A stretch of 64,000 bases of DNA from Anolis carolinensis. Its lineage: Eukaryota. The stretch's first letter is position 1. Every line of letters starts with the position of its first letter. The position numbers were made by a program, and so were the translations under genes. The notes beneath the pieces were generated by a model. It was not told the origin of the DNA. It worked only from the letters and a program-made list of their open reading frames with translations, and made no database searches. The stretch covers positions 7,768,317 through 7,832,316 of the forward strand of contig NW_026943824.1 in assembly GCF_035594765.1 (NCBI RefSeq), written 5' to 3'. Below, in pieces: positions 15,249 to 50,279 of the stretch.

Positions 15249-15740
15249 ATGTCTCTGCCCATCTCCCCTGTGCTCTGGAGGAAAGAGTCGCAACGTAGAA
15301 GGCAGAGGAGGCAGAGGCGGCAACGAGACTTGCACCCAAAGCCCTGGAGGGATGCCGTGGTGGACGACAGCCTGACCAGCCTGCAGTGGCTCCAGGAGTT
15401 CTCCATCCTGACGGCTGACACAGAGAAGCCCACCGCGTCCGGGGACAAGGGGCCCCCAAGACAGCAGCAGCAGCAGGTCCCTGAGGCTCCGTCCAGCCCT
15501 CCGGAAGGGGCCCGGGCCTCTACAGGGATGGGCCCCACTGCCTTCTGCGGCCCCCATCCCCCTACACAGGACCCCCTGGATTTCCGGACAGATGCACGGG
15601 TCAAGCCCCCCTACTCCTACGCCACCCTCATCTGCATGGCCATGCGGGCCAGCAAGGGGGGCAGGCTTACCCTGGCAGCCATCTACGCCTGGATCGCAGA
15701 GAACTTTGCCTTCTATCGCCTGGCAGAGCCCAGCTGGCAG
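15249..15740 (+). CDS. FOXJ1 paralogue (foxj1.2/FOXJ1-B-like), coding exon 1
   Basis: FoxJ1 signature [16 protein letters not shown] and forkhead start [14 protein letters not shown]...WQ; donor gtgagg; start codon inferred. Confidence 0.9.
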
Positions 15741-16248
15741 GTGAGGGAAACAATGGGCTTCTCTCGGGGCTCTGGTGTCTCAGGAGGGTCCCCCAAGGGC
15801 CAATTTGGGATCAGGAGAGGGACTCCCTGCGGCCCAGAGGCAGAGAACTGCCCCCAAATTGCAGCCCTGTCTCCTTTTCTATCTTCTCTAACCCTAACCC
15901 TTCCTCTCCTTTTTTCCCCCTTCTACTTCCCCCCTCTCTCTCTTCCCTTTGTTTTCTAAGTTTCCCTCTTCCCCTTCTCTTCCTTCCACTGCCTTCTTCC
16001 CATTCTATTTCCTCTCCTTTTCTGTGCTTCTCTTTTTTGCCTATTTTCCTTTTTCTCCCTCATCATTTCTAGTTTCCTTCCTTCTCTCCCTTGATCCCTT
16101 CCCGTCCTTCTTTCCTTCCCCTGCCTCCTACATTTTCCCTTTTTCTTTTCCTCCCTCCCTCCTTCCTTCCTTCTTTCCTACATTCAGTCCCGTTTGAAGG
16201 CAGTCACCCTTCTTTCCACCCTCCCTTTCTCCTTCTCCTTCTCCATAG

Positions 16249-16791
16249 AACTCCATCCGCCACAACCTCTCCCTCAACAAATGCTTCCAGAAGGTTCCAC
16301 GGAGGAAGGATGAGCCGGGCAAAGGGGGCTTCTGGCAGATCCACCCGCAGTTCGCCCACCTTTTTGCAGACGATGGGGTTTTCCATCGCAGGCATCGCAT
16401 GCCAGCCCTGCCTTCGTCTGGACATCCCTTGAACCCAGCACCCAAGCCTCCCCCAGTGGCCCCTTGCCCTCAAGCCGGGCCCCCTTCTCCAGAGGTCCCC
16501 GCTCTGTCCAGGGACCTTGGCTGGGGGGCCGTGCTGGAGCCCACCAAAGAGGCAGGCAGCTTGGAGGACCTGGAGCTGGCCGCTGCCCTGGACTCACTGG
16601 CCGAAGGTGAGGACAACCATGGCCAAGAAGAAGAAAGGGGCCTGGCCCAAGCCTTGACTCTGTGCCCTGAAGTTTGGGGAGCGGAGGAGGAGGAGGAGAG
16701 GGCGGCAGAGCAAGGGTCCCGGTGGGCTTTCGAGGTGGGCGCTTGCTTCTCTGAGGGGTTCCTTTCTGGGATCCAACCCTGGGAAGGGTGA
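16249..16791 (+). CDS. FOXJ1 paralogue, coding exon 2 (344 aa in total)
   Basis: Acceptor ctccatag; [31 protein letters not shown] then an acidic tail; AATAAA near 17245. Confidence 0.9.
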
Positions 16792-17628
16792 GCAGTGTCT
16801 CCCCAGGGGGGGCAGGGGCCCAGAGCTAAAGCATTTCTGCCTGGAAAAGTGGCCCCTGAATCATGCCAGGGCATGGAAACAGACCCAGCCTCTTTCACGC
16901 AGTGCAGAAGACACTCATGTACCATCTACACTGCCATATAAAATCCAGATTATCTACTTTGAACTGGATTATATGGCAGTGCAGACTCACATAAAGCAAA
17001 TAATGTGGACTACATGCTTTGATATCTGGTTTATATGGCAGTGTAGAAGGGGTCTCAGTAGCCAGGGCTTGCAGCTTTAATGAAACCTGGAGAAGGCATG
17101 GGCTTCTAAAAGGGTCAACGATCCAGAAGCCTGGGGCAGCTCAAGCCACAAGCTGAAAGAGGCCAGGAGTCGCCCCAAGGGAGTCACCTTGACTTCTCTC
17201 CCATCTCCAATTCTCTTTCCAAATATGGATTTCAGCAGAAAACTTAATAAACACAGGCAAGTTTTGGTCTGAGTGCACTGCTTGGATTTCTCTGGCATTT
17301 CATGAGCTCCCTTGAATTGATACGGCAATGGAGGGAGGGTTCTTGAATTGGCTGCAAGAGCGTACTGGCAGGTGAGCAAGGAGACGCTTTCCCCACAATG
17401 CCAGGCAAGTTTGGGCCTGTAAAGCCTTGGGCAAGCCAACGATCGTCAACCTGTGCCAAAAAGGACCAACGGCTGGAGTGGTCACATTGTCCTCCACAAC
17501 CGTTTTGTCCCTTTGAGGAAGCCACGTGACCAGAACTCTCCAGGAGAGACTGGGGAGGCTGGCTTGCTCATTCCCAGAGTAAAGAGAAACAAGAGACACA
17601 GACTCTAGCGCATAATAATACTTGGTAC

Positions 17629-17634
17629 TTTATA
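17629..17634 (-). terminator. MGRN1: Candidate MGRN1 variant polyA signal (TATAAA)
   Basis: TATAAA on the minus strand followed by a GU/U-rich tract. Confidence 0.4.
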
Positions 17635-47606: not shown

Positions 47607-47905
47607 AAAGGTAAAAGTTTCCCCTGACGTTAAGTCCAGTCATATCTGACTCTGGGGGTTGGTGCTCATCTCCATTTCTAGGCCGAAGAGCCGGCGTTTT
47701 CCGTAGACACCTCCAAGGTCATGTGGCCATAGGCATGACTGCATGGAGCGCCGTTACCTTCCCACCGGAGCGGTACCTATTGATCTACTCACGTTCGCAT
47801 GTTTTCGAACTGCTAGGTTGGCAGAAGTTGGAGCTAACAGCGGCCGCTCACGCCACCCCCGGGGTTTGAACCTGGGATCTTTCGGTCCGCAAGTTCTGCA
47901 GCTCA
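47607..47905 (-). mobile_element. Sauria SINE
   Basis: Family match. Confidence 0.85.
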
Positions 47906-48193
47906 GGGTTCATTTAAATTGCTTTGGTTCAATGCAATGGAGTCACGGGGGTTGTAGTTTTACAAGCCTCTGCCAAAAAGTGAGGATGCCTCACCAAACT
48001 ACAAATGTCAGGATCCCATGGAAATTAAATTATTCAATGACATCCCTCAAGGAGGAGCTCTAGGTGCAGCTTCCTTTGGCTTCGGCTCAGCACTAAGATG
48101 ACCTATATTATGCACATCTAATGCCACCCCACTTTTGGCAAAGTGATGTAGCCAAAAAAGGGTGAGTGTTAAATTCAAGTAAATACAGTATAT

Positions 48194-49792
48194 CAGGGGT
48201 CCTCAAACTTTTAAAGCAGAGGGCCGGTCCACAATCCTTCAGACTGTTGAGGGGCCGAATTATCATTTGGGGAAAAAAATTCCTATGCACACTGCACATA
48301 TCTTATTAGTAGTGCAAAACAACAACAATAATAATGAAAGAACAATACAATATTTAAAAATGAAAATAATTTTAACCAACATAAACCTATCAGGATTTCA
48401 ACAGGAAGTGTGGGCCTGCTTCTGGCCAATGAGATAGTCAGGTTAATTAGGATTGTTGTTGTGTGTCTTCAAGTCATTTCAGACTTTGGGTGAGCTTAAA
48501 TCCAAAATTATTTATTTATTCATTTACTACATTTATTTACTACATTTATATCCCACCCTTTTCACCCCGAAGGGAACTCAGAGCAGCTGTATGTACATAC
48601 AGCCGGGCTGTGGCGCAGCTGGCTAGTAACCAGCTGCTATAAATCACTACTGACCGAGAAGTCATGAGTTCAAAGCCCGGGTCGGGTTAAGCCTCTGACC
48701 ATTAAAAAAAAAAAAATAGCCCCGGCTTGCTGTTGACCTAGCAGCCCCAAAAGACAGTTGCATCTGTCAAGTAGGGAAAATTTAGGTACGCTTCATGCGG
48801 GAGGCTAATTTAACTAATGTACAACACCATAAAACTGCTCACAAGGAAAAGAATGAGGAAGAACAGCCACCAACAGCTCCCCCTGTGGCTGGAATCGTGA
48901 AGCTGGAAAGATGTTAAAAAAATGCCTCTGTGTCTGTCTAAAACCTGAATGTTGTTTGTCTGTTGGCATTGAATGTTTGCCATATATGTGCTCATTGTAA
49001 TCCGCCCTGAGTCCCCTTTGGGGTGAGAAGGGCGGAATATAAATACTGTAAATAATAAATAAATAAATATATTATTAGCATAGCACAATTTTAGCATTAT
49101 ATATTACTACTAGCTGTGCCCGGCCACGCGTTGCTGTGGCAAAGTGGTGGTGGTATTGGTTAAAAATTGTTGTGTAATTTTTATTTGCATTTTTTATTAA
49201 TTTTATTGTAAGTTATATTTTTATTTATTATATTTTATTTTCTTGTATTATTTTTAGTTATTTTTGGTATTATAGTATTTTATTGTATTAATTTTTAGTG
49301 TTTTTTATTATTTTTTATTGGGTTGCTAGGAGACCAAGTTGGAGGAGCTTAGCCTTCTAACTGGCAGCAATTGGATAAAAGCAATTATTCCTCTCTCTCT
49401 AATTAGGACTTTATTTTTCTTTTCTTTTTGTTGTATCAACCTAGAGGCATGGATGATGGGTTGTGTTGTCAAATTTCGAGGTTGGGGGGCCTGTAGTTTT
49501 GTCGTTTTGTGGGTCGCCATGATGCCATCACTCTTTTATATATATAGATACTGAACTATATCACTATACTGTAATATTATATGTAATATATAACATATAA
49601 TTAATATTATATGGTATTATTATTAATATTATATTGTATAAAATAATATTATTATCAATATAATATGTATATACAGTATATTATATTATTAAAACGGATA
49701 TAAAAATATTATATTATAAATGAGGGCGGGGGCCAATTAAATGACCTTGGAGGGCTGCATCTGGCCCCCGGGCCTTAGTTTGGGGACCCCTG
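48194..49792. mobile_element. hAT non-autonomous transposon with nested SINE2 (48601-49066) and Helitron (49110-49548)
   Basis: TIR caggggtcc(t/c)caaact; perfect 8-bp TSD cagtatat. Confidence 0.9.
49110..49548 (-). mobile_element. Non-autonomous Helitron, complete
   Basis: A|TC...CTAG|T. Confidence 0.85.
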
Positions 49793-49868
49793 CAGTATAT
49801 CAACCAAAGGGACACTTTGAGATCTTTCTGAGGCCGATGGGAGTGGTAGTTGTCCGTCTCCCGCTTGC

Positions 49869-50279
49869 CTTGTTCATGGCTTCCTCGTTGAGCTCCATCT
49901 TCTTCTGCAGCTGCATCATCTGATACATCTCCTGGGCCGGACGTGCTGGGCCCTGGCTGCGCTCCAGGAGCTGCTCTGTGTCCGGCGTGCTCTCCAGGAA
50001 GTTGAGCCGACGCTCCAGGGCCGCCATGCGCTCGTGAAGCTGGTGGAAGAGGGAACTGGACTTCTTGGCTGGTGTGATGCTCTCAGTTGAGGGGGTGAGA
50101 TTTGGCGTGCGAATAAAGTCCATCTCCTCGGCTGTGACCTCCTTCTTGACATCGGTCAGGTGGAGGTGATCAAGGATGCCTTGCAGCAGGACGTGGAGGG
50201 CGTTGAAGTTGACATGGCCCAGCTCCGGTGTCCCGATGGCCAGGTTGATCAACTCCGAGAAGGAGAGGTTGCTGCTCAT
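49869..50279 (-). CDS. C16orf96: C16orf96 exon 1 (QRICH2/C16orf96-family coiled-coil protein, ~675 aa in total)
   Basis: MSSNLSFSELINLAIGTPELGHVNFNALHVLLQGILDHL; position between MGRN1 and CDIP1; GC donor AAG|gcaagc. Confidence 0.85.

Follow-up and report, generated by a model that had tools for sequence, protein, structure and literature searches.

A foxj1.2 gene, ancient sister of FOXJ1, retained beside MGRN1 in the lizard Anolis carolinensis

Fishes and Xenopus are described as having two foxj1 genes, chicken and mammals a single one, in a paper whose available sections do not name "Anolis" (Vij et al., 2012, PMC3493443). In zebrafish, foxj1b is strong in olfactory neurons and redundant with foxj1a, so that loss of foxj1b alone leaves odour responses intact but the double mutant does not, and foxj1 is required for hair-cell kinocilia (PMC10810531); in the choroid plexus and tela choroidea, foxj1b also matters more for monociliated cells (PMC11545745). 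Here we describe a gene of this kind in a 64,000-nucleotide stretch of the Anolis carolinensis genome (NCBI RefSeq assembly GCF_035594765.1, contig NW_026943824.1, positions 7,768,317 to 7,832,316 of the forward strand), hereafter the window. The gene, foxj1.2, is almost certainly the orthologue of the foxj1.2/foxj1b genes of other vertebrates. Our overall reading, to which we assign a probability of roughly 60%, is that it is the sister of FOXJ1, likely produced by whole-genome duplication (WGD), and likely a partly redundant activator of cilia genes in restricted cells.

The two conserved coding exons of foxj1.2 (Table 1) join into a spliced frame that translates into 344 residues with zero internal stops. 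The original prediction, made from the DNA letters, had called this an intact two-exon gene of the FoxJ1 class; its limits fell exactly on the forkhead ATG (15249) and on the ATG of a DUF4795 gene further along (50279). The N-terminal motif that it named is present, and the forkhead domain is full, matching the Pfam Forkhead profile at E 4e-36 over positions 2-87 of 88. The recognition helix (helix 3) is unchanged, the intron has a CAG/GTGAGG donor and a polypyrimidine acceptor ending in ATAG, and GC content at third codon positions (GC3) is 0.74 across the spliced frame. At the protein level, the window gene is identical at 344/344 residues to the RefSeq A. carolinensis "forkhead box protein J1.2" (XP_062820205.1) and at 343/344 to an older model (XP_003228701.2), which the first conserved exon matches at 100%. 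The gene had therefore already been annotated under the name guessed for it, and among the best 120 matches listed, every name that gives a Fox class says J1.

Both RefSeq models differ from the window frame in having 54-65 extra N-terminal residues from an upstream exon, so "two-exon" holds for the coding part from the conserved methionine and not for the models as annotated. This exon is either 5' untranslated region or a species-specific extension. The A. sagrei model lacks it and begins at the methionine corresponding to 15249; because that model and most orthologue starts align there, we regard the upstream exon as likely untranslated, and the methionine at 15249 as the likely conserved start of foxj1.2. 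A scan for RFX X-boxes with a consensus motif gave 8 matches against 10.9 expected, zero of them near foxj1.2, and was uninformative.

A. carolinensis also has a separate canonical FOXJ1, found among protein records with a duck FOXJ1 query (XP_062826703.1; P0166; 447 residues), so the window gene is not the only FOXJ1 of the species. The canonical gene lies on a 324.9-Mb contig and foxj1.2 on a 20.3-Mb contig, and the two proteins share 70% identity in the forkhead and 25% outside it. The three canonical lizard FOXJ1 forkheads at hand (P0166, P0170 and P0167) all have Asp at a helix 2 position that is Ala in most other vertebrates.

To place the window gene, we used an IQ-TREE tree of 58 proteins, picked from about 450 to span the lineages and both copies, over 430 columns. 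Row P0003 stands for the window gene, three invertebrate proteins rather than FoxJ2/J3 serve as outgroups, and Nanorana and Hyperolius J1.2 represent the frogs in place of Xenopus foxj1.2; several lizard rows are long and compositionally odd. The window gene falls in a foxj1.2-type clade of 29 rows with support of 100/100. Among tetrapods this clade holds 11 lizards (including A. carolinensis), three turtles, a crocodile, a caecilian, axolotl and two frogs, and among fishes it holds lungfish, coelacanth, bichir, gar, bowfin, two teleosts (including zebrafish foxj1b) and three cartilaginous fishes. A canonical clade of 24 rows, also supported at 100/100, includes human FOXJ1 and teleost foxj1a. 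Bichir, gar, bowfin, coelacanth, lungfish, caecilian, axolotl, one frog and three lizards each contribute both copies to the tree.

Forcing the window protein to group with canonical lizard FOXJ1 costs 171 log-likelihood units (approximately unbiased (AU) test, p 5e-47), and at 12 clade-diagnostic columns it has the foxj1.2 state in 8, the canonical state in 0 and another residue in 4. The expectation of a foxj1.2-like sister of FOXJ1 is supported. The intron site within the forkhead is common to both FoxJ1 clades, and unspliced database proteins turn into unrelated sequence precisely there (9/10, the tenth likewise). Because this site is shared, a retrocopy is excluded. On this tree, teleost foxj1a is the orthologue of human FOXJ1, and foxj1b is an older sister copy. 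With sharks placed inside the foxj1.2 clade and amphioxus outside both FoxJ1 clades, the duplication is older than the split of sharks from bony vertebrates; as the tree has it, the event predates crown jawed vertebrates, follows the amphioxus split and is not the teleost duplication.

Retention of foxj1.2 is not peculiar to this lizard: the gene is intact in Anolis, and it is also kept by turtles, crocodilians, amphibians, fishes and other lizards. A profile built from 20 reptile sequences returned no bird, mammal, snake or frog in the best 120 of 1560 matches, but the same 120 also left out the Anolis protein itself, so this search misses divergent members. A full-library search, of which the best 150 representatives were kept, reaches such members; 145 were scored against ten references per clade, and names for 26 added frogs, a monitor, a skink and a toad-headed agama to the holders of foxj1.2. 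In a quick tree of 15 representatives leaning towards foxj1.2, 10 grouped with ray-finned fishes, one with turtles and three with lizards, and one was a bonefish protein drawn to the lizards by its long branch. None of the 15 was sister to the crocodile and none suggested a mammal, though one lizard-clade fragment could be a snake. Judged from annotated proteins rather than genome searches, and with no identified bird, mammal or snake member recovered by either profile search, foxj1.2 appears to be missing from birds, mammals and snakes. One record counts against loss in birds: on an unplaced scaffold of the house sparrow, a gene carries the label foxj1.2 (PMC9702581), which may merely name the best hit or may mark a genuine survivor among birds.

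Names are a poor guide in this family, a tick protein also being called "J1.2-like". The bird proteins called "J1-B-like" or "FXJ1B" might have been avian foxj1.2, but this was rejected, since 5/5 of those tested fall inside canonical bird FOXJ1. Several birds have more than one diverged canonical FOXJ1 copy, often misnamed J1-B-like, and the cuckoo (P0251, P0255, P0261) has three clusters of FOXJ1 copies, of which the two tested are both canonical. Among fishes, several diverged foxj1b-like proteins (P0301, P0346, P0409, P0418-P0423) come from the clingfish Gouania willdenowi, and the location of four of them on equal-size 27-Mb contigs suggests a tandem expansion.

Lizard foxj1.2 has changed faster than its sister. 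The squamate stem branch is 0.66 for foxj1.2 and 0.085 for canonical FOXJ1, a change about 8 times faster, and outside the forkhead Anolis and Pogona are 44% identical in foxj1.2 compared with 91% in FOXJ1. Because turtle and crocodile foxj1.2 forkheads stay 90-93% identical to that of coelacanth, this speed-up is mainly squamate; frogs show one of their own, with a foxj1.2 stem branch of 1.17. Constraint was judged from protein differences between A. carolinensis and A. sagrei, which differ at 32/343 residues in foxj1.2 and 12/447 in FOXJ1 (p 7e-5). Within foxj1.2, the differences are fewer in the forkhead (3/91, 88/91 being identical) than elsewhere (29/252; Fisher p 0.02), and only 1/93 residues differs in the acidic C-terminal region. 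A sharper split, 28/129 in "linkers" versus 4/214 in "conserved blocks" (p 1e-9), was drawn after the differences had been seen and is not relied on. By these protein comparisons, lizard foxj1.2 is under relaxed but continuing selection, and its intact frame, canonical splice sites and purifying selection at the protein level mark it as a functional gene rather than a pseudogene. The foxj1.2 of Phrynocephalus forsythii (P0281) has changes in helix 3 and in the wings, together with the longest terminal branch of the tree, and may be decaying.

What might such a gene do in a lizard? By analogy with its relatives, we think a role in switching on cilia genes in a restricted set of cells somewhat better than an even bet. 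Helix 3 of foxj1.2 would bind forkhead DNA sites and its acidic C-terminus would activate transcription of cilia genes, both as expected for the family. If zebrafish foxj1b is a guide, the protein would act in olfactory neurons, inner-ear hair cells and monociliated cells of the brain ventricles, with canonical FOXJ1 covering most motile cilia. In zebrafish the kinocilia requirement is for foxj1b, and Xenopus foxj1.2 is otic. Redundancy between foxj1.2 and FOXJ1 would account for the relaxed rate as well as for the apparent loss of foxj1.2 from birds and mammals. A mis-expression assay for the motile-cilia gene programme has been described (Vij et al., 2012, PMC3493443).

Several observations weigh against this reading. 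The terminal branch of Anolis foxj1.2 is 0.62 compared with 0.037 for canonical Anolis FOXJ1, and the Anolis and Pogona forkheads are 78% identical in foxj1.2 versus 98% in FOXJ1. Of 67 forkhead columns that are otherwise conserved, the Anolis protein deviates at 7; its wing 2 contains two insertions of one residue each, and it lacks a basic KRK motif that is kept in crocodile, coelacanth and zebrafish. This motif, which follows the forkhead and which we take to be a nuclear localisation signal, is also absent from 7/9 lizard rows checked, both turtles, the frog and the old human entry used. In the veiled chameleon, "Foxj1" is reported in the otic vesicle and kidney, in passages that leave the paralogue unstated (bioRxiv 2023.01.18.524635), and canonical FOXJ1 may already cover both sites. 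With respect to the origin of the pair, the two lamprey genes pair together and join foxj1.2 weakly (90/77), which leaves open the round of duplication; a basking-shark "J1-A-like" protein is placed in the canonical clade at only 66; and the authors who described the block in 2014 favour two rounds of genome duplication (2R) but could not separate 2R from a regional duplication (PMC4259306).

The divergence of the lizard protein could be read in another way, with the same orthology: after the burst on the squamate stem, the role of the gene might have changed, towards other targets or a non-ciliary or germ-line site. We consider this unlikely. The stem branches of the two copies agree with it, as do the Anolis-specific changes in wing 2 and an acidic tail that was remodelled, is common to A. 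sagrei and differs there at the single residue noted above. Yet helix 3 is unchanged in Anolis, the frog stem is equally long, and Hara et al. (2018, PMC5901865) describe rapid change as usual for duplicates that lie in gene-dense, high-rate regions, with no functional cause behind it. We are equally sceptical of the proposal that rewiring on the squamate stem, at about eight times the FOXJ1 rate and with wing 2 and the activation tail rebuilt, turned foxj1.2 into a distinct cilia factor, now selected for specialised ciliated cells, with separate losses in birds, mammals and perhaps snakes. If it were true, the inner-ear or olfactory sensory cells and the ventricle lining would be candidate cell types, amniotes would offer a natural experiment, showing which cilia depend on having a second FoxJ1, and zebrafish foxj1b would serve as a model for a gene absent from humans.

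Alternatively, foxj1.2 could be dispensable and in the course of being lost: still intact in Anolis, yet hardly expressed and subject to the kind of drift that preceded its loss in birds and mammals. We find this improbable. The excess of differences between the two anoles over those in FOXJ1 points in this direction, as do the changes inside helix 3 and the wings of Phrynocephalus, the CpG observed/expected ratio of 0.13-0.36 upstream of foxj1.2 (1.05 at the start of MGRN1) and the low expression reported for such genes (Hara et al., 2018, PMC5901865). On the other hand, the frame is open in all 11 lizard rows of the tree, and the differences in A. sagrei avoid the forkhead and the C-terminus. 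A functional, partly redundant foxj1.2 remains our preferred reading.

The genes around foxj1.2 bear on how the pair arose. Coelacanth has been reported to have the order cdip1-ubald1-mgrn1-foxj1, and gar ubald1-mgrn1-foxj1, with cdip1, ubald1 (f100a), mgrn1, foxj1, rhbdf1 and mpg conserved between the two; the region is paired with the aanat1/rhbdf2/cygb region, with neighbour pairs rhbdf1/rhbdf2 and aanat1/aanat2 (Cazamea-Catalan et al., 2014, PMC4259306). The window order, CDIP1 ... MGRN1, foxj1.2, is that of gar and coelacanth, minus UBALD1 and with NAA60 beyond, and foxj1.2 adjoins MGRN1 on the flank opposite CDIP1, as in both fishes. The gar and coelacanth "foxj1" entries were assigned to their clade by position, and the supplement gives positions rather than strands. 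Teleost foxj1b likewise lies near rhbdf1b and ubald1a (bioRxiv 2024.03.26.586788; PMC2975663). This matching neighbourhood, together with the pre-shark age of the duplication, fits a WGD, which probably gave rise to the pair. Chromosome-scale paralogy was judged from the local block (about 55 kb of neighbourhood) and the literature; the supplement of an ohnologue-database paper has, in its available part, no entry for the genes of the foxj1.2 block (PMC13450315).

A regional (segmental) duplication before jawed vertebrates diversified, rather than a WGD, would be compatible with the lamprey placement, with the option left open in 2014 and with the extent of neighbourhood examined. It is nonetheless a decidedly poor candidate, given the reported pairs rhbdf1/rhbdf2 and aanat1/aanat2 (PMC4259306) and C16orf96/QRICH2, which have the DUF4795 domain in common (PMC11006759). 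The two Anolis genes, moreover, lie on different large contigs. MGRN1/RNF157 and UBALD1/2 are presumably further neighbour pairs. The "WGD sister" of the original prediction is sustained as to a pre-shark duplication and the gar/coelacanth order, with which either round, or a regional event, would be compatible. Least of all can foxj1.2 be a recent, quickly diverged lizard-specific duplicate or retrocopy of canonical FOXJ1, which has in its favour only that a long branch can mislead trees, as with the bonefish protein, and which we reject as next to impossible given the tree, the AU test, the absence of canonical states at the diagnostic columns, the intron at the shared site and a neighbour shared with gar and coelacanth.

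We take the human arrangement to be FOXJ1-RNF157(MGRN2)-UBALD2-QRICH2 at 17q25, with FOXJ1 and RNF157 co-oriented, and MGRN1-UBALD1-C16orf96, with no FoxJ gene, at 16p13.3. If so, one copy would have flipped relative to MGRN1/RNF157 since the duplication. In the window foxj1.2 and MGRN1 are convergent on opposite strands, as had been predicted; some 2.6 kb separates the stop codon of the forkhead gene from the final frame that resembles MGRN1. Two MGRN1 exons match human MGRN1 in the PDB (E 6e-23 and 2e-19) and the RING exon matches at E 9e-13; the name rests on these matches to human MGRN1, structure searches having given no RNF157 entry for comparison. The next gene has a Pfam DUF4795 match (E 1e-15) at 35800-36234, with an atlas search score of 0.91; its first exon gave only low scores in the same kind of search (best 0.79). 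We call it C16orf96-like, as a member of the same domain family as QRICH2. The prediction that C16orf96 follows is right as to a DUF4795 gene, the name C16orf96 being provisional, and the QRICH2 of the predicted block is not in the window.

Table 1. Features of the window, in window coordinates
Feature	Position	Strand	Remarks
NAA60 coding exons	10179..11470	+	E 4e-51 to human NAA60; limits partial; 5' neighbour of foxj1.2, same strand
Upstream exon	14530..14661	+	44/44 residues of protein P0439 (tblastn); GTAAGC donor next; in both RefSeq models
foxj1.2, first conserved coding exon	15249..15740	+	164 residues; FoxJ1 N-terminal motif and first half of forkhead
foxj1.2 intron	15741..16248	+	508 bp, phase 0, GT-AG, within forkhead
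foxj1.2, last coding exon	16249..16791	+	180 residues: recognition helix, wings, proline-rich linker, acidic C-terminal region, stop
Candidate polyadenylation signal AATAAA	17246..17251	+	first after foxj1.2 stop; sequence only
MGRN1-type RING E3 ligase gene	19423..27693	-	ATG 27693; CpG-rich 5' end; low end approximate (last resembling frame)
DUF4795 gene	31272..50279	-	ATG 50279; low end approximate; same strand as MGRN1
CDIP1-like coding exon start	63829..64000	+	from translation; no Pfam match; far end of block

On the other side of foxj1.2 lies NAA60, whereas gar has aanat2 and rhbdf1 on this side of foxj1 (PMC4259306); the difference suggests that a rearrangement broke the block here. 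NAA60 is followed by candidate polyadenylation signals (13764 and 14026), the upstream exon starting roughly 0.5 kb further on, so that RNA data may be affected by read-through. UBALD1, which adjoins MGRN1 in the gar and coelacanth tables (PMC4259306), may have moved or been lost in Anolis: five short motifs gave zero matches in six frames of the whole window. The interval between MGRN1 and the DUF4795 gene (27700-31270) contains a 232-bp unit in three copies. Two tandem arrays, at 55644-56853 (29-bp unit, about 42 copies) and 60103-61916 (72-bp unit, about 25 copies), sit between the DUF4795 gene and the terminal exon, which we presume to be CDIP1, and yield long spurious open frames.

The find itself is ordinary and of modest value: the gene is already known, being annotated, with its clade known and its block published, and its fish and frog orthologues have been studied. 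In the open-licence literature searched, we found no study of reptile foxj1.2, and the available parts of PMC10082155, PMC6871517 and PMC13489949 have nothing on it. Nor did we find, in the same literature, a survey of reptile retention, the squamate speed-up, the asymmetry in rate, or a clear denial that foxj1b and human FOXJ1 are orthologues. For work on reptile FoxJ1, such as left-right patterning or the ependyma of the tail, a second paralogue matters for the design of probes, antibodies and knockouts.

Among known systems, foxj1.2 resembles the "elusive genes" of Hara et al. (2018, PMC5901865), of which FoxG2 is an example: like them, it was duplicated early in vertebrate history, survives in reptiles, did not turn up among annotated mammal or bird proteins, and evolves more quickly than the sister gene. 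By the names and accession tried, it is absent from the available Table S10 and 12/19 supplementary files of that study, and it appears to fit the definition as an unlisted example, its presence in reptiles being observed and its absence elsewhere judged from annotated proteins. Canonical FOXJ1 (human, Anolis and teleost foxj1a) resembles foxj1.2 in its FoxJ1 N-terminal motif, identical helix 3 and intron site, but belongs to the other clade and, in Anolis, has a terminal branch about 17-fold shorter. The closest counterparts are zebrafish foxj1b and frog foxj1.2, which lie in the same clade (100/100) and have the same intron site. Compared with zebrafish foxj1b, Anolis foxj1.2 is 78% identical in the forkhead and 32% outside it, is about 100 residues shorter and lacks the KRK motif.

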